Below are positions 3,154-38,782 of a stretch of DNA of 64,000 bases, piece by piece. The translations under genes were made by a program, and so were the position numbers. Under the pieces are notes generated by a model. The model saw nothing but the letters and a program-made list of their open reading frames with translations. It was not told the origin of the DNA and did not search any database. Origin of the DNA: Eledone cirrhosa (taxonomy: Eukaryota); assembly GCA_964016885.1 (NCBI GenBank), contig OZ024741.1:237398001-237462000 (forward strand), written 5' to 3'. Numbering within the stretch: the stretch's first letter is position 1; each line of letters starts with the position of its first letter.

Positions 3154-3280
3154 CAAGCAATGAATTATTTAATTTGTTGATTATTCAACAAATTTAGTTT
3201 ATTACAGTTTAGAAGCACTCAGCAAATTTCTTCTGGAGTATAATATTAATAAATGGAAGGTATCTTTATAAAACCATATT

Positions 3281-3341
3281 TATTTTATTATATATATTTC
3301 AAGGGTACCAAAATTTTGGTATGCTCTCATCAGATAAAATA
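3281..3341 (-). ncRNA. Type I minimal hammerhead ribozyme (family A)
   Basis: Reverse-complement copy of 3474-3534, with one loop II substitution. Confidence 0.8.
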
Positions 3342-3473
3342 CAAAAGTTGGTTTACAGATAGTGACATATTAAAACTAGAACTTAATGTTGTGAGTTCTA
3401 TTTGAATAGTCAAATAGAACTCACAACATTAAGTTCTAGTTTGAATATGTCACTATCTGTAAACCAACTTTTG

Positions 3474-3534
3474 TATTTTATCTGATGAGAGCATACCAAA
3501 ATGTTGGTACCCTTGAAATATATATAATAAAATA
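3474..3534 (+). ncRNA. Type I minimal hammerhead ribozyme (family A)
   Basis: Stem I TATTTTAT/ATAAAATA; core CTGATGA 3482-3488; stem II GAG-CA-TACCAA-aatg-TTGGTA-CC-CTT; GAAA 3515-3518; palindromic loop III TATATA; AUA cleavage after 3526. Confidence 0.85.
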
Positions 3535-3837
3535 AATATGGTTTTATAAATATACCTTCCATTTATTAATATTATTGATATATATATATATAATTGTTTC
3601 TACATTAGGCACAAGGCCAGCAAATTAACCAGTGCATTACTGGTACTTTATTTTATCGACCCCGTAAGGATGAAAGGCAAAGTCAACCTCGGCGGGATTT
3701 GAACTCAGATCGTAAAGGGACGTAACTATGCTGGAAAGCATGGCGTCCGACCCTCTACCGATACTGACAATCCACCGATATATATATAATGAAAATAATT
3801 GAAGTCAGATTTGCAGCTTGTGTCAAAACTCTATTTG

Positions 3838-3924
3838 CATATTACAATTGTTTCAATATCTATCAGCTCGGGTGTGATCAAAGCTATCGAAGCCCGACTC
3901 TTCTTCGAAATTTCCTCAGATATA
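3838..3924 (-). ncRNA. Type I hammerhead ribozyme with long stem II (family C)
   Basis: - strand reads TATAT-CTGAGGA-AATTTC...TCGGG..CCCGA...GATATT-GAAAC-AATT-GTA-ATATG; palindromic stem III ACAATTGT; GUA cleavage triplet. Confidence 0.75.
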
Positions 3925-4525
3925 TGAGTTTACCTGCATGATCCAAAACTGCTGACAGATGTCCCATCATCATTTTATATACACTTATTACTGGCTTCTA
4001 GGTAGGGTGGGTGAGGAAAGGGAGTAGGTAAAAGAACAGTAAATTTCTATTTAAAGATCACATAGATGAAGAATTGTAAATTTCTATTTAAAGATAACTA
4101 ATCAACGGGGATGCTACCAGTTGAAGAAAGGAGGAATAACAAAAGAGAATAGGGGAAGAGGAGGAAAAGAGCAACAGAAGAGAGAAAGAAGAGAACCAAA
4201 GGAGAAAGGGGAAGGGTAGAGAAATAAAGATAAATTAAAGTATTGTGTAAGAAATTTGTAGAAAATACCAAATTCGATGTTTGGCACCATTATTTCCGAT
4301 GGTTTTACAGCCATCTTTGAAGTATCTGTTAGTTAACTATTTGTCATTATGGTTGGGTCAATGATGATGTGTCTATCCCAACGATGACAACAACAATAAC
4401 AATAATCACCACAACAATATCAGCCGCACCAACACAATCATCATCGCTATTGGCAACGAGGGTAGCAGGTGCTGTATTTCAATACCCGCTGAATTGTTAG
4501 AACATTCTCTCTCTCTTCTCTCTCC

Positions 4526-4869
4526 ATTTCATTTTTTCATTTTTCATTTTACATCTGCTTCTCCCTGCTTGCAAGGGTGGGATGGGAACTGATTCTGGCT
4601 TGATTTCTACAGCTGGATGCCCTTCCTAACACCAACCTCATTTACAGTGAGTGGTGGGTGCTTTTTTGCCATGGCACCTCCACGACCACTTTGCAGTGGA
4701 ATGATATGGACCCCAGTCCCTATCATCTCATTTCTACAGCTGAGTAAACTGGAGCAATCTTAAATAAAGTGTCTTGCTCAAGGAAACAACACATCACCCG
4801 GTCTGAGAATTGAACTCACAACCTTTTGATTGCAAGGCCAATGCTCTAACCACTAAGCCATGTGCCTCC
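4526..4869 (-). mobile_element. tRNA-derived CORE-like SINE with RTE-derived tail (family 1)
   Basis: A box TGGCTTAGTGG, B box GAGTTCAATTC, CORE-like CCTTGAGCAAGACACTT...CAGTTTACTCAGCTGTAGAAATGAG, tail CCCACCCTTGCAAGCAGGG shared with the RTE end at 31768-31820. Confidence 0.85.
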
Positions 4870-5058
4870 ATATATATGTATATATATATATATAAAATTA
4901 GAATTTTATTTCTTGCCCTAGGACAGTTGGTACACAAATGTAAGTATGCATACGTACACACACACACACACGCACATACACACACGCACACACACACACA
5001 CACATATATATATTAAAATACGAATATTTATAAAATAGATGTTCTTTTGATCAATTAA

Positions 5059-5111
5059 ATTTTATTATACATATTTCAGAGGTACAACAGTATATCCTCA
5101 TCAGACAAAAT
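5059..5111 (-). ncRNA. Type I minimal hammerhead ribozyme (family A)
   Basis: - strand ATTTTGT-CTGATGA-GGATATACTGTTGTACCTCT-GAAA-TATGTA-TA-ATAAAAT. Confidence 0.75.
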
Positions 5112-5260
5112 ATAATGATGTATGACATACCCTGAGATGTTAAATGGTTAAGATTTAATCTTGATTAAATCTTAAGATTTAATCTTGATTAAATGGTTAA
5201 GATTTAATCTTGATTAAATCTTAACCATTTAACATCTCAGGGTATGTCATGTATCATTAT

Positions 5261-5313
5261 ATTTTGTCTGATGAGGACGTACTGTTGTACCTCTGAAATA
5301 TGTATAATAAAAT
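5261..5313 (+). ncRNA. Type I minimal hammerhead ribozyme (family A)
   Basis: Stem I ATTTTGT/ATAAAAT; CTGATGA 5268-5274; stem II GGA-C-GTAC-tgtt-GTAC-C-TCT; GAAA 5295-5298; loop TATGTA; AUA cleavage after 5306. Confidence 0.85.
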
Positions 5314-5453
5314 TTAATTGATCAAAAGAACATCTATTTTATTAATATTCGTATTTTAATATTAATAACTCTGGAAAATATTTTCTTGTAGAGTGCTTCC
5401 AATTTACTGTAAAACTCATTCTTTGATATACTCATTGAATCTTGTTTAACTCA

Positions 5454-5488
<35 letters not shown>

Positions 5489-5544
5489 TCATCATCATCA
5501 TTATTTTACGTCTGCTTTTCCCTGCTTGCAATATATATATATAT

Positions 5545-6568
5545 GGCCGGTGCTCTGGTGCAATAAGTAGCAGCAAGTGCCCACAAAATACTAGCTCTTT
5601 CAACTGCACAGAGGGCTCTATAGAAATAGTGGACAGCTTCCGTTACCTGGGTGACAAAATCAGCAGTGGGGGAGGGTGCTCTGAAAGTACAGTAGCTAGA
5701 GTCAGAACTGGATGGAAAAAGTTCAGAGAGCTTATACCACTATTAGCCGCTAAAGGGTTCTCCCTAAAAATGAAAGGCAGGTTGTATGATGCCTGCATAC
5801 GGACAGCAATGTTGCATGGCAGTGAGACCTGGGCAGACTAGAGAGGAACGAAGCTTGCATGCTCCGCTGGATGTGTAATAGTAATATACGTGAACGGCAA
5901 AGCATAAACAAACTAAGGAAAAAATTAGAAATAAGAGGGATCAGATGTTGTTTACTCGAGAGAAGGCTACGTTGGTATGGACACGTGATGCGCATGAAAG
6001 TCGATAGCTGTATAACAAAGTGCAGGGCAATAAAGATAGACGGTAGCTACGGAGTAGGCAGACCTAGAAAAACCTGGGACGAGCTGATAAACTCCGACCT
6101 CACACACTTACACCTCTCCAAGACAATGTCACTGGACCGAGACCTTTGGCGGTACTCAGTAATAGAGAAGACCCGCCTTACCTAAATACATAGTAAAACC
6201 TACTACAGTCAGTAGGCATCTCTAACAAAATACACCCCCGTCCCACTACCCCCACCCCATCCACACCGCCCCCTTCTATGTAAAGTTATGTTGGTGCCAC
6301 ACCATCCAGGCCGAAACAAATGAGATCGTGTAGGTGTCATGACAAAAAAACACAGTCCACGCTGTAATGTGGCCGTGTAGGCAACATGGTAAAAACGTCC
6401 CAGACCCACACTGTAAATGTGGTTGGTGTTAGGAAGGGCATCCAACTGTAGAAAACCTGCCAGACAGTCCTATGCGAGCAAGACAATCACTCTTGCCTCA
6501 AGTGGGAAAACCCCCGTCCAAACCCATGCAAGCGTGGAACACGGTCGTTAAACGTTGATGATGATGAT
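5545..6568 (+). mobile_element. 5'-truncated RTE LINE (subfamily 2), RT C-terminal region plus 3' UTR
   Basis: ORFs 5629-5841 and 5859-6185 (DSFRYLGD...MLHGSETW...[12 protein letters not shown]...GRPRKTW) homologous to 31200-31700; (GAT)n tail. Confidence 0.9.
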
Positions 6569-6585
6569 ATATATATATATATATA

Positions 6586-6640
6586 CTAGCTAAACTACCC
6601 GCCCTTTGGACGGTTCAAGTAGCTTTCGATGTAGCTCATT
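6586..6640 (-). mobile_element. Helitron-like 3' terminus (body extends rightwards, far end unclear)
   Basis: - strand hairpin CCGTCC-AAA-GGGCGG followed about 9 nt later by CTAGT. Confidence 0.5.
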
Positions 6641-7155
6641 AAACTAAACAAAGTAAATTTGAATACATAGAAGAAAAACGTACTTGATGTAAACATGAAA
6701 ACCGTAGGCACTATTCCAGCGAAATAATTAATATGTGAGCTCGGTGTCATCCGTTATACCATGTAACAACAGAAATCCAGTCTAGGTATTAATTTTTTTG
6801 GCAACAGTAAAAGCGCATCATGAAATAGAGAAGTGAAGTGATATAATAGACACTATTATATACAAAGCATAATATTGTAAAAGTTATGACATCACTTAAT
6901 GTATGAACATCAAGCTTGAAATGATAAATTATACAATGTCAAATCTATAACTTAACTTAGTGATCTGTTAGAAATTGCTGGTTGTGAAATAATGTTAGAC
7001 TGGTGATGTAACAAAAATATTTTTTATATTGTTATATTGTCCAACCCATGCAAGCGTGGAACAAAGGCCGTTAAATGATGATGATGATCATGATTATGAT
7101 ACATATATATATATATATCTAACAAGTTGGACTGGATACTTTTTCCATATATATA

Positions 7156-8046
7156 CAGGTTGCGGACGATATTTGGTTGCAATTTTCAACTGCTAATTTT
7201 ATGCAAATTTTTTTTACTTCCATTGTCACTCTTGTCTTCATAAAAACAGTGACTATATTTCCATTATTTATTTTCAGAATAATTGATTATGAATAATTTT
7301 GAACCTCCAAATTTGTGGAAGAAACACGGAGTTCTTCTTGGAATCCGCGCCGGGAGGACAAATAAGACCAGAAGATCAACTCCCAGAACAACAGGTGGCT
7401 CGCTGTCTCATACAAAGACGTGCCCAGAGTCATGCAGACAAAGTTTCCAGCGACAACATTGGTCTTAGGTGTCGTCAGCAGTCAAGGTGATATCATGCCA
7501 CCACACTTCTTCCCTGAGGGCCTCAAGCTGAACACCGATGGCTACATCCGCGTTCTGAGCGAGGTAGTAAAGCCCTGGATCGACCAGGTAGCTGTAGGTA
7601 GGCCATACGTGTGACAGCAAGACTCAGCGCTCTGCCATACCAGCCGAAAGACCCAAGCCTGGCTGTCAGAGAACTTCGTCGACCACACTTCACCTGACAT
7701 CTGGCCTCCCAGCTCGCCTGACTGCAACCCCTTCAACTTCTTTGTGTGGGGCGCAGTGGAACGAGACACCAACAGATCTAGCTGCAATACAAAAGACGAT
7801 CTGAAGGCCAGGATCACAAGTGCCTTTAGGGGCCTAAGTCGGGGGAGAGTGACGAAGGCCTGTAGCCGGTTCCGAGGCTGCCTTGAGGCCATCATCAAAG
7901 CCAATGGCGGGTTTATCGAGTGAGATCGAAAGAACAAATTATGAAGACAAACTGACCCAAGTTTGATAAATAAATTTAAAAAATAAAACTACTGTGTTAT
8001 TTTTTCCTAGACAGTAATCTTGCAAACAAATATCGTCTGCACCCTG
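7156..8046 (+). mobile_element. Internally deleted Tc1/mariner DD37D (maT-type) transposon
   Basis: TIRs CAGGTTGCGGACGATATTTGGTTGCAA / TTGCAAACAAATATCGTCTGCACCCTG with TA duplication; transposase relic PPHFF...RPYV*QQDSALCH...WPPSSPDCNPFN has 37 residues between the second D and the third catalytic position (now N). Confidence 0.9.
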
Positions 8047-8092
8047 TATATAAACATGAAGTGTAAGTCAATAGGTTAAAATTATCATATTT

Positions 8093-8151
8093 GCTGTTAT
8101 ATATATTTCGGTGATAACCATTATGCAACAGCTATGACCTCATCAGACAGC
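8093..8151 (-). ncRNA. Type I minimal hammerhead ribozyme (family A, solo)
   Basis: - strand GCTGT-CTGATGA-GGT-CA-TAGCTGTT-gcat-AATGGTTA-TC-ACC-GAAA-TATATA-TA-ACAGC; stems I and II fully pair although their sequence differs from other copies. Confidence 0.85.
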
Positions 8152-10406
8152 TTGAATTTGAACAGAAAAAAACAGAAAACCATAGTGATGGAATAAAGAT
8201 TACTTCTGTTATTTCTATTTTGATATGCTCAGTGCTGAAGTTTGGTGTTGTTTTCTCAAAGCACTGGTTGCATATATATATATATGATGGTGACATGAAT
8301 AGACCTGTTTTTTCTCTAGAAAATGTTTTCCATTGCTGCCACTGCCCAGTCTCTCCTCTACCTTTCTATTTCTTTTTAATTTCTCATTCTATTTTCTGAT
8401 GAAGGACTAGCATCTGAAACATGAGGACTCTTTTTCTACTATATCAAGTGTAAAACTAATGATATATTTCTTCATTGTTCTGTGACGTTTGCTTTGTTAT
8501 TTCTGTTTGCTTTTTGCATATATATATATTGATAAAGAACACCCAGTCCACACTGTAATATGTTGGCATTAGGGAGGACCTCAAGCGGTAGAAACCAAAC
8601 CAGAAAAAGTTCTGTATGAGCAAGACACTGTTGTAGCAGTAATTTGATACTCTCCTCAATAGAGTTTCTTTCACCCTTTTAAGTAGCCACCAAGAAGCTG
8701 ACCTTTGTGGCCTCATAATTAAGTTTCTATTGTCTGAGATTTTGTCATATCAAACGGATATCTGCTTATTCTCGAGTCCCAGAGACAAAGGAAAGAATAC
8801 TCATAAATAATTTGCTCCCAGAGTCAATTCCAGCAGTCAACTAGCTAAAATGTAGTGGTCAACTGTTTCACATACTGACCCCTTTGGGTCTCTCTCTCTC
8901 AGTTTCTCCCTCAGCCAGGCCAGTGAATTCATCCTATCAACAGAAGTTTGTTAAATACATATTGAATATCATTATTGAAAGCAAACAGACATATACATCA
9001 CATCGTCATTTCTTTATAGTTTCAAGTTTTGCTCTTGAAAAGTTCTAATAGTTGGATGCATTAATTACATCTGAACACTCCAATTTCCTCACATTATAAG
9101 AATGATTTTATATCTATTGGTGGTTCACTTCCTGAAACCTCCAATTTCTACTAATTGTTAAAATTCCTTTAAGAATGTTGGTATTTCTAGAAAAAAGAAA
9201 ATTATTATGTTTAATAATGGTTTCAAATTAATTAAATCTGTTTTTACTTTCACTAAATCTTGTGCTTTTATTTAATATGTATGAACTACCTATATAGTAT
9301 TTACAAAATTCAATTATGAAATATACTATTTATATTGAGCATGTATTTGTAGCACAGTGCATTAGACGCCAGGATCTTATAAATGCTTAAGAAAACATAC
9401 TTAATTTCTTGCATGAAGATCACTCCAATAGTATTAAAGAGAAATCCAATTGTTTTATTAAGAACAATTTGGGCATATTTATAGCAAGATTTCAACATAG
9501 GTAATGCGAGATATTTTGCTAGTATGTATTAAATATTTTATGTATTATATAAGTTACTGGGTGGTGGTAAATTAGTAGAATCATGAGAACATTGTATAGA
9601 ATGCTTTGTGGTATACATTCCAGCTCTCTATACTATCTGAGTCCAAATCCAGCTAAGATCAGCTTTGCCTTTCATCCTTTTGAGGTCGATAAAAAAAGGT
9701 ACCAGTTAAATAATGTGGTAGATTTTTTTTTCTCTATCTCTTTCTCACTTCATCTTTTTCATATCATCTTTCTCACATCCTCTTTCTTACTCTCTCTCTC
9801 TCCTTCTCTGGAAGAAATCAGCTGTGTCTGGACCTAGAGAAGGGATGAGTTCTGTCAGGTTTAAAGTACCTGAGACATGCTGTATGTCACATGTGAAATT
9901 CAGGAATTGTATAGAATACTTTGGTATTCTAGAAAAATCCTAAAGGCAAGGTATTAAATGCACATATTATATTGTAACTTTATATACTTTACCTAGGTGC
10001 TGTATACAATGCATACATGAATTTAGGCAAAGTATAATATTACATAACAGAGGTGGAGCACTTTATTAAAAAATTGAAATCTATGAGACCTAAACCAATA
10101 ATGATTTCTAATTTAGACACAATTCCTGCACTTTGTGGGGGAGGGGAAGTTGATTATATTGACCCCAGTACTTTTCTGATATTTTCTTTCATTGACCTTG
10201 AAAGGAGGAAAAGCAAAGTGGACCTTGATGGGATTTGAACTCAGAACATAAAGAGCCACAACAAATGCTCAAATGACTTTGCCAATCCATTACTTTGAAA
10301 CTTAAACAACCAATAATAAACATCAGAGATGAAAACATTTTATTAACAAACTAGTATTTGAATCCTAATCTAAATAATATTTTGATTAATATTGCATAAT
10401 TTTAGT

Positions 10407-16932: not shown

Positions 16933-17196
16933 ATGACGGGTAACCCTAGTTTATAAAAAATAACCTTTACTGAAATTCCTTGTTCGATACTGTTAAACGT
17001 AATTATAATGTCAGGTTTGTATCTATATAGATTAGAAGTAACAGACTACGAAAATATGTATATAAATTTACACGTTTTTGTATATAGACATCTAAACATG
17101 TCAAATATACATATTTTTCTGTAAAATGATATTTTTTTTCAATTTTCTGGGTAATACGTATATTTGGCATGTTTACATGTCAATATACGAAAAATT

Positions 17197-17237
<41 letters not shown>

Positions 17238-26130: not shown

Positions 26131-28154
26131 ATCCATAAAGCTGCTGATGGTTTACTACTGGTAGCTCCAGCATTGTTATAGAACCCTTCTCAAAGTAAGA
26201 TTTAATGTGTAGCCTCAGCCTTGATGAAAACCATATTGAAGTGAATATCTTGGCTGCAATATCTAACAGCCAATGCCCTAGCAGTTATTGTCACAACAGC
26301 TATCATCCTTGAAGAAAGGGAGAAGAGCTGCATCATGTGTCATACTTTATACATATTTTGGATGGTTTATTGGCCTTCAAACACATACTAAATATTGCTT
26401 ATATCAGAATATGGTCTAAGCCATTTTCACTGCCCATTTCAGCGTTACAATAAAATCATCAATCAAGTTTACAGCTGGTCCAACACGATTGACCAATTTT
26501 ATTGGCTATAGCAGCCATTGTTTGAATACTCTGTGACCAGGGTTTTTTTTTAAAGGTTGTTTGAACCGAATATTCCTTATCACCAGCTAGTTTGCTATAG
26601 CAAAGTTTACTATGTATTCCCCATTGTTGCAATGGTTCCCAACTGTGAATGTACTTAGGATCAATCTATTGTTTGTATCACCTTTTCCTGTGAATCAGTT
26701 GCTTATGATGGTAAGGAGATAACTACCTGGAGATCACTATAGAACTGATCCTTTGGTACTGGGTAAGTGCTGTTCAGATTTTTGGGTGGGTGATTTTCTC
26801 TGAGTATTGTAGGGTAGGTTCTTTGCTTGAACTGCTGTAACGAGGCTATAAGTCAACCACTTATGGAACTTTGGGTTGTTTGTGTGATGTGGAAGGACAT
26901 GGTTAAGAGGATGGTTTCAGTCATCTGCCTTGCAGTTTCTGATGGGGCCAAGGTGAAACTTATCTGTTACCAGTGATAGTTAACGTAGAACTGGCAGAGT
27001 CCTAACCAGTCAGCTGACATGACCTGCCATGGAGTTTGAGATGTGGTATAGGTGTTGTATACTATGTGTGGTGGGTAGTCCTAAGGTAGTTATCAGATGA
27101 GCTGATAGCTAAAGAGGTGATTATGGTCTGGTGGCGTCTGAGGTGAAAAAAGAGGTGAAGTGTTTGTGAATCAGTCAAGCATGCATTTAAGAGATGATAC
27201 TAGTTGATGAAGAGAGCTGATCATTTCAAAAGAATTAGTTTCTGTATCAGCAACATCAATATGGAATGAGTTTGAGGGCCAAGAACTAGTCTGAATTTTG
27301 AAGTCACTGATTTTAACACTCGAGGAAAGGAGAAGTCCTCAATGCAGGAAGAGTTGGGGGAATTAGTCCCACCTGTACTCCAGGGAAACCTCTTGCCCAG
27401 GAATAGTTATTTTCCCAGTTCTGAAGAGTCTGGTGACTGCACATATATTGAATACTCAATGGTTATAGTATCAAGGTAGGAGGATTTGGCTGCTGGATGT
27501 TGAGTTTGGAGAATAATAGAAGAAGCAGATGTATTTGGAGGAATGAAGGCAATGGAAACTATGAACTAGAGTAATTGAAAGTCTTTGTTGCTGCTATAAA
27601 TTGGAGAGTGATAGAGGAAGATGTATTTGGAGAAATGGGAGGAGAGGACCATGAGCTAGAGTAACTGGAAGTCTTTGTTGCTGATGTCAAGGTAAAACAG
27701 TGAGTTGTAATGTGAGTTGAATCTCCAATTAGCAGAGAACACTTTTTGGAGTGAAGTTTGAGTAAAGAATGTAGCTGGGGTAGCAAAGATAGATAAGAGT
27801 GGAAACATTTTGTATTCTATCAGTGGAACACACCTACAGAAGAGGAAAACCAATAAAAAAAAATGTGGGTTCAGGTGTTGGGTATACTGGGTTTGACAGA
27901 AGATAAAAGACTGACTGGATTGTTCAGCAGACCTGTCCAATCCATGGCAACAGTAAAAGATGTATATAAAAACATTGACAATGGATTTATTGTTTAACAT
28001 GTATACACATACTCGCATGCATATACACACACATCGTCGTTATTGTTTTTACGTCACTTTTTCAAAGAGTTTTATAGTCAGATGTACTTCTTGACGACAA
28101 CCATTTTAGTTGTCTCTTACAACACAGGGATAAGGTGTGTTTATAAAAATTGGA

Positions 28155-28465
28155 ATCATCATCATCATCATCATCATCATCACCGTTTTACGTCCGTTCT
28201 TCCACGCTAGCATGGGTTAGACGGGTTGTCCTGTTGTGGGCAGTGTCTGGTCGGCTGACCATGCCTTGCTCATACAGGAACTGATTTGGCTTGATTTCTA
28301 CAGCTGGATGCCCTTCCTAACACCAACCTCATTTACAGTGAGTGCTGGGTGCTTTTTCGTGGCGTCTACACGTCCACTTTACAGTGTGGGCTGGGTGCTT
28401 TTTTGCCGTGGCACCTCCACGACCACCTTGCGGTGGGGGGTGTGGGGGCATGCGGTATCCCTATA
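28155..28465 (-). mobile_element. SINE-like element with RTE-type tail (family 3)
   Basis: Copy of 11327-11650 with (ATC)n on the + strand. Confidence 0.7.
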
Positions 28466-28504
28466 TATAAATATATAGTTTATATGAAGCATTGTGAAAT
28501 ATGT

Positions 28505-28700
28505 AATTAAGAATGTATTGGGAAAGCTGATACAATGAGAATAGGAAATATAATGGTGAAAGTATAGTAAAGTAAGAATGACAAGAAAACAATAGTTTTT
28601 ACTCTTTATTTTGGTTTGTCATTCTTATTTTACTCTACTCTAGTTCCAACATTATATTCCCTATGAGCATTGTACCAGTTTTCCTAATACATTCTTAATT
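28505..28700. repeat. Old imperfect fold-back repeat
   Basis: AATTAAGAATGTATTGGGAAAGCTGATACAATG ... CATTGTACCAGTTTTCCTAATACATTCTTAATT, with inner AAGAATGACAA/TTGTCATTCTT. Confidence 0.75.
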
Positions 28701-29221
28701 AAATAAATATATGTATATGTGTACGCATATATATATATATATATATAAGTATATATGTACTGGGTTCAGTCTAAGCTGGGTCCATGATAAAATACGCCAA
28801 GTACACACTGTAAAGTGGTTACCAGAGAAAGGGCATCTAGCCATAGAAACCATGCTAAAAATTAAATGTATGAGCAAGACGTAGTACTTCAAACTGTCTA
28901 GCTTTGGACTGTGATGAACTGTCCAACCCATGCCAACATGGAAAATGGACATAAAATAATAATGATGATAATGTTTTTGTTTATAATATAAGCATGCATA
29001 AACCATTGCTAAATTGAAGATATTAAACCTTATTATATATTTTATCTGACATACATATAGGCCATGTATATCCCGGATTTTTAGAATAGGTACACCATAT
29101 CCCTGTGTATCATAAAAGAGTTTGCATCAGGAAGGGCATCTGGCTGTGACACATTGTCTTAGAACATCCCATCCAACCCATGCCAACATGGAAAAGTGTG
29201 CTTAAAAATGAAGATGATGAA

Positions 29222-31820
29222 GACTTATATATAGCAGGGGACTTCAATGGTCATGTTGGACAGCTCCAGGATGGTTACACTGGGGTACATGGTGGGCACG
29301 GTTACGGCTCAAGAAATGAAGGAGTGAGACTTCTTGAATTTTGTGATGGAAGTACACTGACTATTTGCAACACAAACTTCCAGAAACCTGCCAATCACCT
29401 AATAACATACAAATCTGGCGAGCACATAAGCCAGATTGACTTCTTACTAGTTAGGCAGCGGGACAGGCAGATAGTGTCAAATACCAAGGCATACCCTGGG
29501 GAAGAATGTACCCCACAGCGTAGGTTAGTCGTTAGTGATATCTCAGTAAGCAAGAGATGAAATGAGACATACAGGAAGGTGTGGAGAAGAAAGGTCTGGA
29601 AGTTAAAAGACCTTTCACTAAAATACAAATTTAGGAAAGCCCTTCAAGATGTATATGACGAAAAAGAAGACGATTTAGAGACGTATGACAGATAATAACT
29701 GGAATTTCTTACGTGACAACTTGCTGCAGGCTACTGATGAAACTTGTGGCTGGAGCAGAGCTTCAACCAGACAGAGAGTGACCTGGTGGTGGAACAGCAC
29801 AGTAGATAAGGCCATTAGAGACAAAAGACTAGCATGGAAGGCTTGGAAAAAGGGTGGGAGAAGGGAAGAATATACAGCCGCTAAGAGAGAAGCTAGACGT
29901 CGGGTGTACTTAGTACGCAGGGAGGCTGAGAGTAGGAGGTTTGCCAATGTTCTGCAACGGTGTCAATGCAAATCAGGATGTTGTTGGAGATAAATGTGTC
30001 CGGGATGATGCCGGTGTACTTAGTATCACAAATGATCAGAAAAAGGAGGCCTGGAAATGTCATTATGAGAGACTGATGAATGTGGAGAACGAATGGGAGA
30101 GAGAGAAATTACCCTTAGTAGATCTGACAGAGGGACCAGCTATTGAGATTGACGAATATAGGGTCCAAGAGGCTATTAAGGAAATGAAAAATGGTAAGGC
30201 TGCTGGACCATCGGGAATAGTTGCTGGGGACGTAGGCACTAAACTGGTTGCACGCATCATCAATCAGGCTATATATCGTGGTGTCATACCCAAAGACTGG
30301 TGCAGCAGTATTCTCATAAATTGCTACAAAGGTAAAGGGGATGCTCTGGAGAGGAGCAATTATAGGGGTATAAAACTGATGGATCAGGTTATGAAAGTGG
30401 CAGAAAGGGTATTAGCACAACTAATTAGAGAAAGGGTCAAACTAGATGAGATGCAGTTTGGTTTTGTGCCTGGGAAAAGTACAACAGATGCCCTCTTCTT
30501 GGTGAGACAATTGCAAATAGAGGTTCTTAGAGAAAAATAAGCCACTATACTTAGCCTTTGTTGACTTAGAGAAGGCCTTTGATAGGGTACCCGATCTGTC
30601 ATCTGGTGGTCCCTAAGGAAACTAGGTGTTGAGGAATGGCTTGTGAGGACTGTGCAAACTTTGTACAGAGGTACTCTCAGTAAAGTCAGGCTAGAAATGG
30701 AGTTTAGTGGGGAATTCCAGATATAAGTAGGAGTACATCAAGGTTCGGTCCTCAGCCCGCTCTTGTTCATTATAGTCCTCCAAGCCATAACAGAGGAGTT
30801 TAAGACTGGCTGTCCATGGGAACTTCTCTATGCTGACGATCTGGTTCTTATAGCAGAATCAGTAGAGGAGCTAGAGAACAAATTCTGGCTATGGAAACAG
30901 CAGTTGGAAGCAAGAGGACTGAGAGTGAACCTAGCTAAGACAAAAGTGTTGATGAATAGAAAAGAGGACAACACTCTGATTCAGTCAGGGAAATGGCCAT
31001 GTTCGATATGCAGAAAAGGAACTGGCATAAATTCTATAAAATGCACACAATGCAGATGCTGGGTACACAAGAGATGTAGTGGGATAGCAGGCAAACTAAC
31101 AGGTAGGGAGAAATATGTATGCAGTAGATGTACAGGGAAATTAGACAGTAGAAGTCGCATTGATAGACACATTTTTCAAATGCAGGAGGGTGCTATAGAA
31201 GTGGTGGATAGCTTCCGGTACCTAGGAGATCAGATTAGCATGGGAGGGAGGTGTTCCAAGGCCATAGTATCTAGAATAAGGACGGGTTGGAAGAAGTTTA
31301 GGGAGCTGCTTCCTCTGCTGACGAAGAAGGGTTTCTTCCTGTGTACGAAAGGCCGGTTGTATGATGCCTGTGTGAGGAGCGCGATGCTGCATGGTAGTGA
31401 GACATGGGCAGCAACTGCAGAGGATATGCGACGGCTGGAGAGAAATGAGGCAAGCATGCTTCGTTGGATATGCAATGTAAATGTGCACGAACGACCCAGC
31501 ATAAATGTGTTGAGAGAGAAACTGTGTCTGAGAGGGATAGAATGTAGTGTACGGGAGAGGCGACTGAGGTGGTATGGACATGTGATGCGCATGGAGGATG
31601 ACCGATGGGTGAAGAAGTGCCAGGAAATGCCAGTTGAAGGAAGACGTGGTAGAGGTAGACCACGAAAAACATGGGCGGAGGTGGTGAGGACAGACCTCTG
31701 ATCGTTGAAGCTCACGGTGGAGATGACGAGGGACCGTGACGAGTGGAGAGATGCTGTGCTGAATAAGACCCGTCCCACCCTTGCAAGCAGGGAAGAGCAG
31801 ATGTAAACTGATGATGATGA
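29222..31820 (+). mobile_element. RTE-clade LINE, 5'-truncated, frameshifted (APE, RT, PHD-like finger, C-terminal domain)
   Basis: APE motifs GDFNGHVG and SQIDFLL; RT motifs QFGFVPGKST, AFVDLEKAFD and LLYADD; Cys cluster CSIC...CTQCRCWVHKRC...CSRC; RRLRWYGHV; GRPRKTW; (GAT)n tail; split across four ORFs. Confidence 0.95.
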
Positions 31821-32001
31821 TATATATATATATAAGTTAACAAGGTATTATTTAAGGTAATTGAGTGATGTAGTTTCTGGCAATTGGCAGTTTTTAGACA
31901 CACCGGACTAATGAAACAATTGTTAATACTTTGAATAAACCCTATTGTACAGCCGACCACGTTATTCTTCACTCATTTACTATATATATATATATATATA
32001 T

Positions 32002-32390
32002 GGAGGCACATGGCTTAATGGTTAGAGCATTGGCCTTGCAATCGAAAGGTTGTGAGTTCAATTCTCAGACCAGGTGATGTGTTGTTTCCTTGACTGGGGT
32101 CCCAGTCCCTATCATTCCACTGCAAAGTGGTCGTGGAGGTGCCACAGCAAAAAAACACCCAACCAACACTGTAAAGTGGTCGTGGAGGTGCCACGGCAAA
32201 AAAACACCCAACCAACACTGTAAAGTGGTTGTGGAGGTGCCACGGCAAAAAAGCACCCAGCACTCACTGTAAATGAGGTTGGTGTTGGGAAGGGCATCCA
32301 GCTGTAGAAATCAAGCCAGAATCAGTTCCCGTCCCACCCTTGCAAGCAGGGAAACAGCGGACGTAAAATCAAATGTTGATGATGAAATGA
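32002..32390 (+). mobile_element. Family-1 SINE variant with CORE deleted and an internal ~49-bp unit triplicated
   Basis: tRNA-like head; CACTGTAAAGTGGTCGTGGAGGTGCCACGGCAAAAAA.. three times; RTE-like tail. Confidence 0.85.
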
Positions 32391-32460
32391 TATAGTAGTA
32401 AAACACCGGGAGATTATATCTGTAGTAGGTAGAGCACTCAGTCCATAGGATGAGTTCGGT

Positions 32461-32607
32461 ATAAAGTTAATTCCACAACAAATTAGCAAACCATACTCGG
32501 GCGCACGTGTTTCACCCAACGGATTCTCAACTCGAGTTGAGAATTCATTGGGTGAAGCACGTGTCCTCGAGTATTCTTAGCTAATTTGTTGTGGAACTAA
32601 CTTCATA
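32461..32607. repeat. Imperfect ~146-bp hairpin (MITE-like)
   Basis: AAGTTAATTCCACAACAAATTAGC...TTCTCAACTC|GAGTTGAGAA...GCTAATTTGTTGTGGAACTAACTT. Confidence 0.8.
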
Positions 32608-32616
32608 TATGTAATC

Positions 32617-32677
32617 ACTGTTATACATATTTCAATGGTATCTTATGTAGTACTCAGATACTATCTCATCAGACAGT
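32617..32677 (-). ncRNA. Type I minimal hammerhead ribozyme (family A, solo)
   Basis: - strand ACTGT-CTGATGA-GATAGTATCT-(12 nt)-AGATACCATT-GAAA-TATGTA-TA-ACAGT. Confidence 0.85.
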
Positions 32678-32804
32678 TTTTTGACTTGCATGAACATTAG
32701 TGATGTAAGTTCTCATCTGATATGCTAGTTGGTGGGCTTAGATATTGTTTCTTCACCTCTCTGTTAGCATATCTATATATATATATAAGATTTATAATAG
32801 AAAT

Positions 32805-32856
32805 GGCTTCTACAGGACTAGAATTGTTTCATTCGAAGGAAATCATCAGGAAAGCC
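32805..32856 (-). ncRNA. Type I hammerhead ribozyme (family B, solo)
   Basis: - strand GGCTTTC-CTGATGA-TTTC-cttc-GAAT-GAA-ACAA-ttctagtc-CTGT-A-GAAGCC; TATAAATA about 22 nt upstream (32879-32886). Confidence 0.7.
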
Positions 32857-33100
32857 GACTGACATTGTGGTATGGTGGTATTTATACGTTTTCTGGTGGT
32901 TGGAGAAGCTGGTGATTAGGATGAGTGGAGGTCATTGGCCAAGTGATTTTAAAGAACGGATTCTTTGAAAAAAACTATATTTAGAGAAATATACATGTTA
33001 ATACAATGGCACATATAAAATATATATAGACATACAAACATGCACACACACACACACACACTACTTTCAGTTGAATTTTTTTCTCTCTTCAAACATTAAT

Positions 33101-33120
33101 TCCTGTATTCTCTATTTCAG
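33101..33120 (+). promoter_or_regulatory. Probable splice acceptor for the exon holding the 5' UTR and CDS of zinc-finger gene 1
   Basis: TCCTGTATTCTCTATTTCAG|AT with pyrimidine-rich upstream sequence. Confidence 0.6.
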
Positions 33121-33440
33121 ATAACTATCTAAATGGCTGTCTATTACTGTGGCCCAACTAACTGCTTATATCGATACAAAGTTACACTGAAGAGTACTTT
33201 TCATCATCATCTTCATCATCAGAACTACAACATCATTGAAGAAAATATATTAAATTTTGTGAACTGTCATCATATTGATCAATAAATTGATTAAAGAGGA
33301 CATATAATTAATTAAAGAGAAGAATCTACATCGTATATTTAATGAGAATTTGAAAGTCTGTTGAGATCTGTGTAGGTAGAATTGAAGGCAGAAGGAAACT
33401 ATTTTTTGGAAAGTCACCCGCCGTTAAACAACTGAGCACC

Positions 33441-34820
33441 ATGTATTCTGATCAACCCATATATCCTACAATGGTCCCTCCACCAAACTATCATACTTGT
33501 GGTATACATCTGCAAGACAATGACAACAGCAGCAGCAACATTCCCGGCAACAGTGATGATAGCGATCAGGCAAGGGAAAATTCTAGCTCAAGCAGCAGGA
33601 AATCAGTGGCAATACAGGAACAACCAACTTACTACAATCACAAACATGGAGAGAAACCATACAAGTGTAACACCTGTCGGAAAGCTTTTTCAAGACGGGC
33701 AGATCTAAACAACCATGAAGTAGCTTTTGCTGGAGGTAAACATTTTAGTTGTGCATATTGCTGCAAAGCATTTTGCCAGCGTGCACACTTGAAGAGCCAT
33801 GAACGCATTCATACTGGAGAGAAACCCTTTCAGTGTGATTCTTGTCCAAAGTCTTTTAGCCAGAAGATTCATCTGAAAGTTCATGAGAGAGTCCACTCTG
33901 GAGAGAAACCTTACCGATGTCATATGTGCTGCAAAGCATTTGCTCAGCGGGACCATCTAAGCAATCATCAACGTGTTCATACAGGAGAGAAACCATTCAG
34001 CTGCACATTCTGCTTGAAGTCTTTCAGTCAACGTGCACATCTAAGGAATCACGAAAGAGTCCATACTGGAGAGAAAGCATTCAGTTGTTACATCTGTAAC
34101 AAAACTTTTAGTCAGAGAACTTACCTGCGCAACCATGAACGAATTCACACTGGAGAGAAACCATTCAACTGTGACGTATGTTTTAAGTCATTCAGTCAGA
34201 AAGCCCATCTCAACACCCATGAGCGCATTCACACCGGTGAGAAACCATTCAAATGTCATGTGTGTAAGAAGGCGTTTAGTCAGCGCGATCATCTTAACAA
34301 CCACCAAAGGACCCACACTGGAGAGAAACCATTTACCTGTGCGTATTGTCACAAAGCATTCAGTCAGCGGGCTCACCTAAACACTCATGAACGAACCCAC
34401 ACAGGAGAGAAGATACCATCACCATCTTCTCAGACTTCTACAACTGCCACCTGCTTAGTCCATAACTGCAAGACATCCAATATTCCTGTTACATGCTGTG
34501 GTACACACAAAACCACTTCCAAACGGGACGTGAAGGCTCAAAACCGTCACCAAAATTTCTGCAATCACCACCACCACCATCACCACTACCACCACCACCA
34601 CCATCACTCTGGTTCACAGGAATCTGGTGAGAAGTCACTCACAACCCCCAACCAAGATACCAACAGAAAGACATACACACCTCGAGCCAGTTCCACAAAA
34701 AACAATGGCCATTGTGAACACACTTCATCAGAGCCTCCTGTAGAGACATCACCTGTGACAGCATCCCAGCAACAGCCACCGCCGCCAGCAGCAGCAGCAA
34801 CAGCACCAGCACCGCCGCAA

Positions 34821-34855
<35 letters not shown>

Positions 34856-35000
34856 ACAACAACAACCACCACCACCACCACCACCACCACAGCAGCAACA
34901 ACAACCACCACAGCAGCAACAACAACCACAGCAGCAGCAACAACAACCACAGCAGCAGCAGCAGCAACAACCACAGCAGCAGCAGCAGCAGCAACAACCA

Positions 35001-35032
<32 letters not shown>

Positions 35033-35327
35033 CCCTACTCCAACATCTGCTTCCACTCCACATCCTTCACAGCAGCTCTCCCCCATTGCCAACCCAAGTA
35101 ACATACCAAGAAACAACAACAGTGGTGTTGGCATCCAGCAGCCGAACCCTCCTACCTTGATACTGCAGCCGTTGAGTATTCCATCTACATGCAGTCACCA
35201 GACTCTTCAGAACTGGGAAAATAACTATTCCTGGGCAAGAGGTTTCCCTGCCATGTCCCCCACGTGGGGTACAGGTTGGACTAATTCCCCCAGTGTCTTC
35301 CCATGTACTCTGAGACAAAGTAAATAG
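33441..35327 (+). CDS. C2H2 zinc-finger protein (8 canonical plus 1 degenerate finger; C-terminal polyH and polyQ/P)
   Basis: Intact 628-aa ORF, ACCATG start, repeated CxxC..F.....L..H...H with TGEKP linkers; the first finger lacks its second His. Confidence 0.95.
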
Positions 35328-35601
35328 TGTAGATTTACACTACAGCTATTATATGAATTGCTCTTTATCTCATTCATCACCTTGGACAAATAACAGACAA
35401 ATGGACATCTACAGATTATAAACTATACAGAAGAAACATATGAACAGGAGATTAAAATATATCAAATCTCGTATATATCTGTGTGTTTGTATGTGTATGT
35501 ATATATATATATATATATAATGTTTGTGTGTGTATATATGTGTATGTATGTATATATATATATCTATATATATATATATATATAGTTTTAATATAGATCA
35601 G

Positions 35602-35648
35602 ATTCTACAGGACTAGAACTGTTTCATTCTTTAGAAATCATCAGGAAT
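35602..35648 (-). ncRNA. Type I hammerhead ribozyme (family B)
   Basis: Exact reverse complement of 35668-35714. Confidence 0.7.
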
Positions 35649-35667
35649 ATAACAAATATATGGTTAT

Positions 35668-35714
35668 ATTCCTGATGATTTCTAAAGAATGAAACAGTTC
35701 TAGTCCTGTAGAAT
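35668..35714 (+). ncRNA. Type I hammerhead ribozyme (family B)
   Basis: ATTC-CTGATGA-TTTC-taaa-GAAT-GAA-ACAG-ttctagtc-CTGT-A-GAAT; GUA cleavage after 35710; stem II closes on U.U rather than the canonical G-C. Confidence 0.7.
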
Positions 35715-35798
35715 CTCATCTATATTAAAACTTTTATACTCTGCAATGTATTGAGTACCTTACTTACTGTGGTTACCTCCGATTCAACCCGGAATAAC

Positions 35799-35856
<58 letters not shown>

Positions 35857-35981
35857 GTTACGTAAGTGTGTAACTACAGTTAGAGGCAGTTCATCGTTCT
35901 CAGCACTCGATCATGTTACAATGATTGATTTCGTGTTTGGTTGCATACCAGGATTAAGGCAGCTGTAGTGTGGAAATAAAA

Positions 35982-36317
35982 GTAAGCAGGATCAGAGACA
36001 ATGGTGCACCATATATATAAACTTCATTGGCATATTACAATCATTTCAATATCAATCAGGTGAGGGAACAATCATAATGAGTGGGACCTGATTCTGTCCC
36101 AAGATCTCATCAGATATCTGAGTTTATATGTGCAAAAACACGTTCAAACTTTCAATGTCTTTTTTCACATTTAAAGTAACATATCTTTTGAGATGATGAG
36201 GCAGGGTCAGCCCCAGTCATTTTGATTGTACCCTGACCTGATCAATATTGAAATGATTGTAATATGCCTATAAAGTTTATATATATATGGTGCAACATTG
36301 ACTTCAATCCAGCTTAC
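35982..36317. mobile_element. Older fold-back element with family-C hammerhead arms
   Basis: 35982-36070 is the diverged reverse complement of about 36223-36317; the left arm has an intact core and the right-arm core has decayed to CTTTTGA (36185-36191). Confidence 0.7.
36032..36117 (-). ncRNA. Type I hammerhead ribozyme with long stem II (family C)
   Basis: - strand ATAT-CTGATGA-GAT...ATT-GAAA-TGATTG-TA-ATAT; same architecture as 3838-3924. Confidence 0.65.
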
Positions 36318-36580
36318 CTACATGTGTATATGTGTGTATGTATATATGCATGTGTGTGCGTGTATATATATATATGTGTGTATATATATTATAAATATAT
36401 GAGTATATATTTCATTTTTCATTTTACGTCCACTTCTCCCTGCTTTATATATTATAAATATATGTATATATATATATATGTATGTATATGTATGTATATA
36501 TATATATATGTATGTATATATATATATGTATGTATATGTATGTATATATATATATATGTATGTATATATATATATGTATA

Positions 36581-36914
36581 GGCACATGGCCTAGTGGTTA
36601 GAGCATTGGCCTTGCAATCGAAAGGTTGTGAGTTCAATTCTCAGACCGGGTGATGTGTTGTTTCCTTGAGCAAGACACTTTATTTCACATTGCTCCAGTT
36701 TACTCAGCTGTAGAAATGAGATGATAGGGACTGGGGTCCATATCATTCCACTGCAAAGTGGTCGTGTAGGTGCCACGGCAAAAAAAGCACCCAGCACTCA
36801 CTGTAAATGAGGTTGGTGTTAGGAAGGGCATCCAGCTGTAGAAATCAAGCCAGCATTAGTTCCTGTCCCACCCTTGCAAGCAGGGAAAAAGCGGACGTAA
36901 AATGAAATGATGAT
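36581..36914 (+). mobile_element. Family-1 SINE
   Basis: tRNA head, CORE-like body and RTE tail, as at 4526-4869. Confidence 0.85.
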
Positions 36915-36967
36915 ATCATAAAACATGTCTATAAAATTACAAGATAAAATATGTACCATTTCCTCTC

Positions 36968-37515
36968 CCAATTAGCATAATTAACTATATAAAAAATCGA
37001 ATAGACCAGGCTATAAGAATGAGGCTTCTATGAAGAAATCTCCAACAAATAACCGAAACTAGCCCTTTTCGTCGGCCGCAACGGAATATTTATCGAATAT
37101 TTCGACAGCGTAATCGCCCAGATTGACCGCTACTACGTCACGATTCTTAGCCATTTTGAATGAATTCTTGGCGCGATCACTTTTGAAAATTTAGTGTCTA
37201 GATCAGAGCAAATCTCCTGATGAATCCGATGCTCGAGTTACATAATTATTACATAATTATTGGAAATCTCAAAATGCAGACGAAACCATGGTAGAGGTAT
37301 TTAAATGTATTCTATTTTCTCCTAGTTTATTTTACACCTAATTCTGTTTAATTGACTATATCTGGGCGATTACGCTGTCGAAATATTCGATAAATTTTCT
37401 GTTGCAGCCGACGCGAAGGGCTAGTTTTGGTTATTTGTTGGAGATTTCTTCATAGAAGCCTCATTCTTATAGCCTGGTCTATTCGATTTTTTATATAGTT
37501 AATTATGCTAATTGG
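36968..37515. mobile_element. Inverted-repeat element with a hammerhead in the spacer (family D)
   Basis: 156-bp inverted arms 36968-37123 and 37360-37515 with few mismatches. Confidence 0.85.
37212..37298 (+). ncRNA. Type I hammerhead ribozyme with long stem II (family D)
   Basis: ATCTC-CTGATGA-(58 nt, imperfect stem II)-GAAAC-CATG-GTA-GAGGT; palindromic stem III ACCATGGT; GUA cleavage after 37293. Confidence 0.7.
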
Positions 37516-37690
37516 TATTGTATTTTGTTAGAGATGCCTACTGGCTGTAGTAGGTTTTACTATGTATTTAGGTAAGGCGGGTCTTCTCTATTACTGAGTA
37601 CCGCAGGTCACGGTCCAGTGACATTGTCTTGAGAGGTGTAAGTGTGTGAGGTCGGAGTTTATCAGCTCGTCCCAGGTTTTTCTAGGTCTG
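37516..37690 (-). mobile_element. RTE subfamily-2 fragment
   Basis: [20 protein letters not shown]; matches the reverse complement of 6060-6232. Confidence 0.85.
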
Positions 37691-37697
37691 TATATAT

Positions 37698-37731
<34 letters not shown>

Positions 37732-38192
37732 ATGTATGTATATGTATGTATATATGTGTATATATATATGTATGTATATGTATGTATATATGTGTATATA
37801 TATATGTATGTATATGTATGTATATATGTGTATATATATATGTATGTATATGTATGTATATATGTATATATGTATATATGTATATGTATATATGTATATG
37901 TATATATATGTATATGTATATATATGTATATGTATGTATGTATATATGTATATGTATGTATGTGTATATGTATATGTATATATGTATATGTATATATGTA
38001 TATATATGTATATGTATATATATGTATGTATATATGTATATGTATGTATGTATATATGTATATGTATGTATGTATATATGTATATGTATGTATGTATATA
38101 TGTATATGTATGTATATATGTATATATATATGTATATGTATGTATGTATATATGTATATATATATGTATATGTATGTATGTATATATATATG

Positions 38193-38227
<35 letters not shown>

Positions 38228-38228
38228 G

Positions 38229-38259
<31 letters not shown>

Positions 38260-38260
38260 G

Positions 38261-38290
<30 letters not shown>
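37691..38290. repeat. (TA)n/TATG compound microsatellite
   Basis: Directly visible. Confidence 0.95.
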
Positions 38291-38291
<1 letters not shown>

Positions 38292-38782
38292 GAAATCGTG
38301 TGTCGAAACAAATATTGTTATACTTGGGGAGGGTCATATTGTGTAATATTGCCAGAATTAATAACAGACCACACTCACTGTTTGGTTGGTTTCGCTTCTC
38401 GCTTCTGTGTCTTTTAATAGTCGTAATCTAACTTACTCGGTCCTCAATGTTGCCATTGACTGACCGACAATAGCACCACTGACGATGTTGCAGATGTGCA
38501 ACGAAAGAACTTTGATAAACTATATATATGTGCCTTGTGTCTATATTGTATCTGTATTATTTTTGACCGTCGGTCAGTCAATGGCAACATTGAGGACCGA
38601 GTAAGTTAGATTACCAATATAAAAGACACAGAAGCGAGAAGCGAAAACCAACCAAACAGTGAGTGTGTTCTGTTATTAATTCTGGCAATATTACACAAAT
38701 ATGACCCTCCCCAAGTATAACAATATTTGTTTAGACACATGATTTCATATAAAAAACCTCGCAAAACTAATTCATCGCCGTT
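38287..38782. mobile_element. Inverted-repeat element with a hammerhead-like motif in the spacer (family E)
   Basis: About 182-bp inverted arms 38287-38468 and 38569-38751 plus a short one-sided extension; spacer 38473-38533 has GCACCA-CTGACGA-T-GTTGCA-gatg-TGCAAC-GAAA...TA-TGTGC with a weak stem III. Confidence 0.75.

Follow-up and report, generated by a model that had tools for sequence, protein, structure and literature searches.

A stretch of 64,000 nucleotides from the Eledone cirrhosa contig OZ024741.1 (the window) carries short repeats that lack open reading frames and contain hammerhead ribozyme motifs, which raises the question of what kind of mobile element left them there. A preliminary description had taken them for several Penelope-derived, non-autonomous families copied in trans. 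We favour, with a probability of about 0.72, a reading in which they are short pseudo-LTR (pLTR) end pieces, generated by insertion of several hammerhead-bearing families of Penelope-like elements (PLEs) into TA runs and predicted to be mostly dead ends.

All 12 hammerheads originally listed, together with one weak and two decayed motifs, are found in place, and in descriptor scans the matches are far above the shuffled level (9 versus means of 0.07–0.3). A strict descriptor recovers eight of the 12 listed motifs (100 block dinucleotide shuffles: mean 0.07, maximum 1). It also gives an unlisted weak match at 8393(+), which was taken as chance, as were the poorly stemmed candidates at 26193, 59870 and 61564 from relaxed variant-core scans (U3-A8). 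A relaxed descriptor gives nine matches, the same eight plus the weak motif at 38473(+), against a mean of 0.3 and a maximum of 2 in 40 shuffles. No motif is found when stems of at least four strict pairs are demanded, because stem II of families A and B is mismatched at pair 4. The motifs at 35602, 35668, 32805 and 37212 were laid out by hand, their first stem II pair being U-U or A-C. CUGANGA, GAAA and a UH site are present in type I order in 13/13 laid-out motifs; the site is AUA or GUA, and CUU in the weak motif. Core residue C3 is located at 3333(-), 3482(+), 5104(-), 5268(+), 8146(-) and 32672(-) in group A, 36113(-) and 3919(-) in group B, 35644(-), 35672(+) and 32849(-) in group C, 37217(+) in D and 38479(+) in E. 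The weak motif has a good but offset stem II and only two stem I pairs adjoining the core. In the decayed motifs the core is altered, at residues C3 and U16.1 in the one at 2146 and likewise within the core in the one at about 36180.

The Rfam hammerhead models, which had been named as a means of finding the motifs, do not detect them. No hammerhead family is returned at E ≤ 10 for 2000–8500 and 32300–37600, which hold all 12 listed motifs but not 38473, and none is among the best 150 of 340 matches for the whole window; the matches listed are miRNA-type hairpin noise only. The stems vary in sequence between families yet stay paired, as first described. Across nine copies stem I is paired at 36/36 positions and stem II at 26/36 (2/20000 and 1/20000 permutations, respectively), a test that is biased upward because the motifs were chosen for pairing. 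Loop III is fully self-complementary in nine of 13 motifs, with five different 8-mers, and partly so in the three C motifs and E. The G10.1-C11.1 pair is G-C in just one of nine copies at offset 0, and also in E at offset 1; its loss may reduce ribozyme activity. In the contig depth data (X1), the family majority letter brings back a stem II G-C pair (A3493G, 112,405 of 117,229). Isolated motifs mostly do not adopt the hammerhead at minimum energy, with a stem I probability of ≥0.9 in 2/13. The minimum-energy homodimer is a double hammerhead for two of ten motifs, including that at 8093, and another fold for the remaining eight.

The motifs fall into five sequence groups, a fair count of families as originally given: A (elements at 3157, 5013, 8093 and 32617), B (35982 and 3838), C (35587, 32805 and 2146), D (36968) and E (38293). 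The fold-back structure that had been described holds up, with arm identities of 81–98%; single arms occur at 3838, 8093, 32617 and 32805. Element A1 (3157..3575) consists of arms 3240–3405 and 3410–3575 (98%) around a 4-nt turn, with a tail on the left arm (3157–3239), TA on one side only, and hammerheads at 3281–3341(-) and 3474–3534(+) that are predicted to cut after 3289 and 3526. Its arms have three non-majority letters in common at mirror positions 3259/3556, 3322/3493 and 3351/3464 (the letter at 3322 being read from its mirror position), a pattern in the letters that is compatible with one template and one event. Element A2 (5013..5457) has arms to 5184 and from 5187 to 5367 (94%), a right-arm tail (5368–5457), hammerheads at 5059–5111(-) and 5261–5313(+), a 25-nt unit repeated 3.8 times at its centre and TA on both sides. 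The other two A elements are single arms on the minus strand: A3 (8050..8151, hammerhead 8093–8151) and A4 (32608..32677, hammerhead 32617–32677).

In group C, a zinc-finger stop codon lies 260 nt upstream of C1 (35587..35799), which has arms of 97% identity, a 9-nt turn placed ∼10 nt 5' to the core, a tail at ∼35739–35799 and hammerheads at 35602(-) and 35668(+) in which stem III is 4 bp long and stem II has U-U at its base. The single minus-strand arm C2 (32784..32853, hammerhead 32805–32853) terminates in a TA run, at the short end also seen in the C1 left arm. A decayed fold-back, C3 (2141..2285), turns within the ribozyme and has a tail resembling that of C1; it lies before the start coordinate of the preliminary description. 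B1 (35982..36317) is an older fold-back (81%) with a hammerhead at 36032–36117(-) and a decayed partner at ∼36180(+). B2 (3786..3924) is a single minus-strand arm with a hammerhead at 3838–3924 and its 3' end inside a TA run; this locus and its flank are also present in another organism's run. D (36917..37515) has arms 36968–37123 and 37360–37515 (96%), a left extension (36917–36967) and a 236-nt centre carrying the hammerhead 37212–37298(+), and its right end adjoins a LINE fragment. E (38293..38782) is flanked by TA on both sides and has arms 38293–38468 and 38569–38745 (97%), a 100-nt centre with the weak hammerhead 38473(+) and a ∼33-nt tail to 38782. A fold-back that was not on the original list, F (32388..32607; arms 32460–32533 and 32534–32607, 85%), has no hammerhead, and its tail (32388–32459) bears the shared tail motif described below. 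Further fold-backs at 17054–17215 and 28463–28740 also have no hammerhead.

The arms are 5'-truncated and inverted head to head with their 5' ends meeting, as is characteristic of PLE insertions. In every two-armed copy, 10–90 nt separate the turn from the core. Breakpoints vary among copies of the same family, and the turn or end point is different in each of the three C copies. One arm is 33–90 nt longer than the other, giving A1, A2, C1, E and F a one-sided 3' tail; in B1, D and C3 the one-sidedness is equivocal. TA flanks are found on both sides of A2, C1 and E and on one side of A1, B2 and C2; TA runs at the ends would mask any target-site duplication. A motif ACTC-N9-22-GAGTRCYY is shared by four tails, at 3213..3239(-), 5368–5398(+), 32432–32455(-) and 35738–35760(+), in each case beginning no more than about 7 nt from where the shorter arm stops. 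Its count of four compares post hoc with an expected mean of 0.21. The tail hairpins show no unusual stability (z of -1.49 to +0.98 in six tails) and the tails do not align across groups in MAFFT. We regard this hairpin-like motif, found in different families, as a candidate start signal for reverse transcription.

One of the families reaches very high abundance in this species and is almost missing from a related one. In X1 the depth peaks at 791,177 in the ribozyme bin, is 80,724 in the next 5' bin and falls ∼460-fold to 1,715 at the A1 turn, with 11–16 on the unique flank; part of the ribozyme peak may reflect conservation across subfamilies (80% cut-off). The tail has a depth of just 5,270, which 5' truncation cannot account for. 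The loose ends displayed in these data are dominated by a neighbouring SINE.

As had been stated, the window contains no PLE ORF, and GIY-YIG is found by Pfam in 0/137 window frames. A metagenome pattern scan gives at least 116 loci, mostly chance; 14 of 116 pass a strict descriptor, some of them sitting inside long bacterial-looking ORFs. Neither reverse transcriptase (RT) nor GIY-YIG is found by Pfam in 71 frames of 12 metagenome loci, which are the 96 listed frames minus 25 of L053. One locus (L030) shows the same anatomy, with 175-nt arms, a 2-nt turn and a hammerhead in the arm. No RT or GIY-YIG ORF of a PLE was linked to any stub, and a PLE origin is likely on the strength of the insertion anatomy. 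The minimal type I hammerheads of the preliminary description stand, as does, by anatomy, its Penelope-like origin; its non-autonomous families copied in trans are unproven. Short end products of ordinary PLE insertion are the simpler reading because breakpoints differ, the depth is not flat and there is a precedent in the hammerheads that PMC4209133 reports.

An RT/GIY-YIG protein from an autonomous PLE elsewhere in the genome would nick TA-rich DNA, and reverse transcription would be initiated internally on the RNA, 3' of the ribozyme, with two alternative start sites yielding either a short or a tailed end. The enzyme would read through an uncleaved hammerhead, a template state that we infer because sequence to either side of the cut site is retained in the stubs, and would halt 10–90 nt beyond it. 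The same event may also produce a second copy in inverted orientation, primed either by fold-back of the first or from the opposite nicked strand. Ribozyme activity is predicted only for dimers formed through the palindromic loop III, within a parent RNA that contains several copies, whereas read-through transcripts of two-armed stubs would have their ribozymes blocked by pairing between the arms. A point against PLE stubs is that tails of 60–90 nt exceed the published 30–40 nt.

The strongest competitor, which we consider rather unlikely, is that short ORF-less PLE derivatives consisting of a ribozyme and a start signal are transcribed and re-inserted in trans as non-autonomous families. The tenfold depth drop within 50 nt 5' of the ribozyme is what a fixed 5' end would give, and the proximity of every turn to the core points the same way. 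In the text of PMC3846280 drawn on here a pLTR alone is enough for trans mobilisation in a rotifer, and non-autonomous PLEs and PLE-derived retrozymes are already published. Against this, no turn is common to any two window copies and the A1 turn has 0.2% of the ribozyme depth. Two-armed transcripts, with predicted folds of -115 to -312 kcal/mol, would be poor templates, and copying of an autonomous RNA that runs off its 5' pLTR yields an equally short length. More doubtful still is a bolder reading, in which octopus PLEs mass-produce ribozyme stubs: reverse transcription would start at a conserved ACUC...GAGU hairpin at the tail base and run off the RNA 5' end, and some stubs would now be self-propagating short elements. 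With copies numbering in the tens of thousands, these would place hammerheads and long double-stranded hairpins next to and within host genes such as the zinc-finger gene 33354–35327.

It is improbable that the repeats are non-LTR retrozymes, or monomer offspring of these, spread via small circular RNAs. Type I hammerheads, a length of 150–500 nt and the absence of an ORF are shared with retrozymes; solo monomers are described in 10.64898/2026.07.22.740005, and an axolotl retrozyme ribozyme has the U-U that group C shows at its stem II base (PMC7229834, in the part cited). However, no hammerhead in the window lies in a head-to-tail array; the units here are not tandem, which speaks against retrozymes. 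Moreover, the cut site is internal, 20–230 nt from the 3' end and not at a unit boundary, and the motifs are of the minimal, not the canonical, type. The least credible source is a set of MITEs from a DNA transposon that targets TA, with an incidental ribozyme likeness: inverted repeats, small size, TA flanks, the lack of an ORF and window frames that look mariner-like by their motifs would suit them, but the ends are unequal with a one-sided tail, the arms meet at a 0–9-nt turn, length is not fixed within a family, single arms occur in the same families, the depth profile is not flat, and the catalytic core is retained while the stems covary.

The repeats are likely end stubs of PLEs, a known by-product of Penelope-type elements in other animals and not a new kind of element, and the known picture of PLEs is unchanged by these findings. 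In annotation work, stubs of this kind can be both highly abundant and species-specific, escape Rfam and resemble MITEs or miRNA hairpins, and the risk of labelling them as MITE or unknown, raised at the outset, is real; ribozymes go unmentioned in the main text of a recent repeat annotation of Octopus vulgaris (PMC13282606). Mechanistically, natural stubs, in their thousands and with two 3' ends, chart where PLE reverse transcription starts and stops, and the shared tail motif is a new detail, a candidate start signal open to testing.

As far as the excerpted text of PMC4209133 (2014) goes, opposite-strand and single minimal hammerheads are ascribed to truncated PLEs, a self-complementary loop III is a trait of PLE hammerheads and cephalopods are not mentioned. 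The window motifs resemble these metazoan hammerheads in type I topology, short stem I, long stem II and palindromic loop III, and in having many families per genome, mostly solo, with opposite-strand pairs 100–700 bp apart. Unlike them, G10.1-C11.1 is mostly replaced here (G-U, U-U, A-U, A-C), and E alone has their additional unpaired base after A9. Among endonuclease-bearing PLEs, the relevant sections report head-to-head inverted pLTRs with a palindrome at the junction and an optional 31-bp tail (PMC3846280), an inverted 5'-truncated copy with a one-sided tail and TA bias (PMC8557442) and a lizard PLE that nicks AT-rich DNA, initiates internally at two sites and uses uncleaved RNA (PMC11167929). 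The window elements share with these insertions the head-to-head arms, palindromic junction, one-end tail and AT/TA target, but have no ORF between the arms, tails of 33–90 instead of 30–40 nt and one tail motif common to unrelated ribozyme groups. Non-LTR retrozymes, as portrayed in the cited parts of PMC7229834 and 10.64898/2026.07.22.740005, are likewise ORF-less, with type I hammerheads and a proposed PLE ancestry, but form head-to-tail tandem arrays with mostly canonical ribozymes, whereas the window elements are inverted or single. Octopus Naiads are also cephalopod PLEs that prefer (TA)n; in the account of PMC8557442 used here they are without canonical hammerheads, unlike the window stubs, and the source of the stubs is therefore more likely another PLE clade (Neptune, Poseidon, Nematis or Hydra).

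The window holds five sequence groups of hammerhead motifs (A–E). A strict descriptor matches nine motifs, against a mean of 0.07 and a maximum of 1 in 100 shuffles, and eight of the nine had been listed in the preliminary description. A relaxed descriptor also returns nine, including the weaker motif at 38473, against 0.3 with a maximum of 2 in 40 shuffles. The other four listed motifs have a mismatched stem II base and were laid out by hand, and the two decayed copies (about 2146 and 36180) were borne out on inspection. The observation is confirmed as a whole. Points against it are that the Rfam check proposed with it showed no hammerhead match at E ≤ 10 in 2000–8500 and 32300–37600, that a G10.1–C11.1 pair is rare among the motifs and that the predicted stem I probability is at least 0.9 in just two of 13 isolated motifs.

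Pairing was scored at pairs 1–4 of each stem in nine copies, a set without E and without mirror arms, and is present in 36 of 36 positions of stem I and 26 of 36 of stem II. Swapping strands between copies equals the observed pairing in 2/20000 and 1/20000 permutations, respectively, a test biased upward because the motifs had been chosen for pairing. Pair 4 of stem II is a mismatch common to groups A and B. Loop III is fully self-complementary in nine of 13 motifs, with five different 8-mers. Stem III of group C has 4 bp, and this ribozyme could fold alone, without a partner. For two of the ten motifs tested, those at 8093 and 37212, the minimum-energy prediction for the dimer is the double hammerhead.

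In all two-armed elements the ribozymes read outwards, and the arms (the two copies of the inverted pair) are therefore joined at their 5′ ends. The turn between them measures 0–9 nt in A1 (3157–3575), A2 (5013–5457), B1 (35982–36317), C1 (35587–35799) and F (32388–32607), a fold-back without a hammerhead. Turns are positioned 10–90 nt 5′ of the ribozyme core. D (36917–37515) and E (38293–38782) consist of two copies of unequal length, with the ribozyme in the unpaired centre of the element. An additional 3′ tail extends one of the two arms in A1 (83 nt), A2 (90 nt), C1 (∼60 nt), E (∼33 nt) and F (72 nt). The elements terminate in TA runs, which flank A2, C1 and E on either side. Groups with two-armed elements are also represented by single arms, and the break points of the three C copies all differ. 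The A2 centre contains a 25 nt unit repeated 3.8 times, as repeated fold-back would give. The predicted cut site is 20–230 nt ahead of the short 3′ end, and since the sequence continues past it the template was presumably uncleaved there.

Four tails (A1, A2, C1 and the ribozyme-less F) begin with ACTC-N9–22-GAGTRCYY. This pattern was composed after the tails had been seen, making the count post hoc; its four matches in the whole window are all tails, against a mean of 0.21 in 100 shuffles. The stability of its hairpin is not unusual, and the motif is absent from D and E.

The best explanation, with a probability of about 0.72, is that the elements are short insertion products of autonomous Penelope-like elements (PLEs). 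Their short length could result from priming at a 5′ copy of a candidate reverse-transcription start signal followed by run-off at the RNA 5′ end. The preliminary description had proposed non-autonomous Penelope-derived families; the PLE origin is supported by anatomy and ribozyme type, and the non-autonomous families rank below insertion products. Re-amplification of the short elements as non-autonomous units is an unlikely alternative, on which sequence depth bears. Contigs from three sequencing runs were mapped onto 3100–4500 at 80% likeness: X1 (the same organism), X2 (the sample of X1, hence not independent) and X5 (another organism). The summed depth in X1 is 11–16 on unique flank, 791,177 and 294,755 in the two ribozyme bins of A1, 80,724 and 51,724 just 5′ of these and 1,715 at the turn, and the tail has 5,270; summed depth is not copy number, and the ratio says no more than that the family is very abundant. 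This profile is not flat, whereas that of a fixed-length fold-back family would be. The low tail depth implies a contribution of subfamily divergence to the profile as well, and truncation and a very short element are therefore not separable by depth. Descent from retrozymes is far less probable: these are defined, in the available text of PMC7229834 and bioRxiv 10.64898/2026.07.22.740005, as tandem arrays, whereas the window elements are not tandem. That the elements are MITEs is the least credible reading.

In X5 the depth is 22–25 million on the neighbouring SINE but 0–260 over A1. The A1 signal is therefore not AT-rich noise, and the A1 family is species-specific or else diverged by more than 20%. 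The group B copy B2 (3786–3924) is found with its flank in X5, and its insertion is therefore older. At position 3493 the majority letter restores a stem II pair. Three non-majority letters are common to both A1 arms at mirror positions, which fits one template copied in one event, although later arm homogenisation could also account for them.

Read-through transcripts of two-armed elements have predicted folds of −115 to −312 kcal/mol, within which ribozyme pair probabilities are at most 0.01. The stem II probability of A1 drops clearly, from 0.93 alone to 0 in the two-armed transcript; for several other motifs the pair probabilities are already low in isolation. From these predictions, two-armed elements are more likely to be double-stranded RNA sources than active ribozymes.

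Pfam, applied to 137 window frames of at least 70 aa (TA-repeat frames left out), identifies RVT_1 in three places (29914, 30727, 60125), as well as an AP-type endonuclease at 29150, and no GIY-YIG domain in these frames. Relatives of the 30727 protein, which we take to be of LINE origin, contain RVT_1 and PHD. Metagenome loci with similar hammerheads (71 frames of 12 loci covered by Pfam) gave no link to an ORF either, so that anatomy and ribozyme type are the basis of the PLE assignment. Four eukaryote-like metagenome contigs (L030, L032, L047 and L020) have several similar hammerheads apiece; one of those in L030 lies within a fold-back (L030:643–994) with 175 nt arms and a 2 nt turn.

The DNA of the window is of animal origin, rich in TA, and contains LINE fragments. 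A frameshifted LINE (29150–31820) comprises endonuclease, RT and a C-terminal PHD finger and ends in ATG repeats; short 3′ relatives are located at 2604–3154, 5500–6564, 37519–37688 and 52811–53432. Its tail is matched by the 3′ part of a 330 nt tRNA-headed SINE family (4542–4868, 36580–36914, 48313–48639 and 49957–50299; 90–96% identity). Between 37690 and 53900, LINE and SINE pieces also break up a degenerate TA/TG microsatellite that is ∼16 kb long and contains gaps in the assembly. Decayed fold-backs without a hammerhead at 17054–17215 and 28463–28740 (arms 79–80%, beside TA runs) are possibly older PLE stubs. Short elements bounded by inverted repeats (7150–8052 and 51629–52506) contain transposase-like frames, presumably mariner-like, that have no Pfam match. 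Two single-exon-looking C2H2 zinc-finger genes with polyQ/polyH tracts lie at 33354–35327 and 54467–55972. Among the 120 relatives listed for the latter protein, the named ones are led by Octopus bimaculoides (71% identity), a cuttlefish (69%) and Argonauta (57%), and named non-cephalopods reach at most 53% identity. The DNA accordingly comes from a coleoid cephalopod, likely an octopus. C1 starts 260 nt past the stop of the former ORF; given candidate poly(A) signals at 35451, 35724 and 35975, it may or may not lie in the 3′ UTR. The copies C2 and A4 (32617–32853) are in antisense orientation and precede an AG acceptor at ∼33120.

According to the available text of the sources cited here, minimal hammerheads number thousands per animal genome and are mostly solo; some form opposite-strand pairs 100–700 bp apart, ascribed to truncated PLEs, and monomers are inactive and dimers weak (PMC4209133). 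The giant squid has 235 hammerhead loci (PMC6962438), and O. vulgaris has 31 recently active PLE families, in a repeat paper whose available text does not mention ribozymes (PMC13282606). Octopus Naiads are described as having no canonical hammerheads (PMC8557442). The literature searched yielded no study of hammerhead stubs from octopus PLEs; the supplementary lists of PMC4209133 may include molluscs. PLE insertions consist of head-to-head inverted pseudo-LTRs with junction palindromes and an optional 31 bp tail, and the pseudo-LTRs allow mobilisation in trans (PMC3846280); the same structure is reported together with TA targeting in PMC8557442. For a lizard PLE, internal priming at two sites defines the tail, AT-rich DNA is nicked on both strands, and the ribozyme is protein-assisted and dispensable for insertion (PMC11167929). 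The PLE insertion structure is already in print, and the elements probably belong to this known kind.
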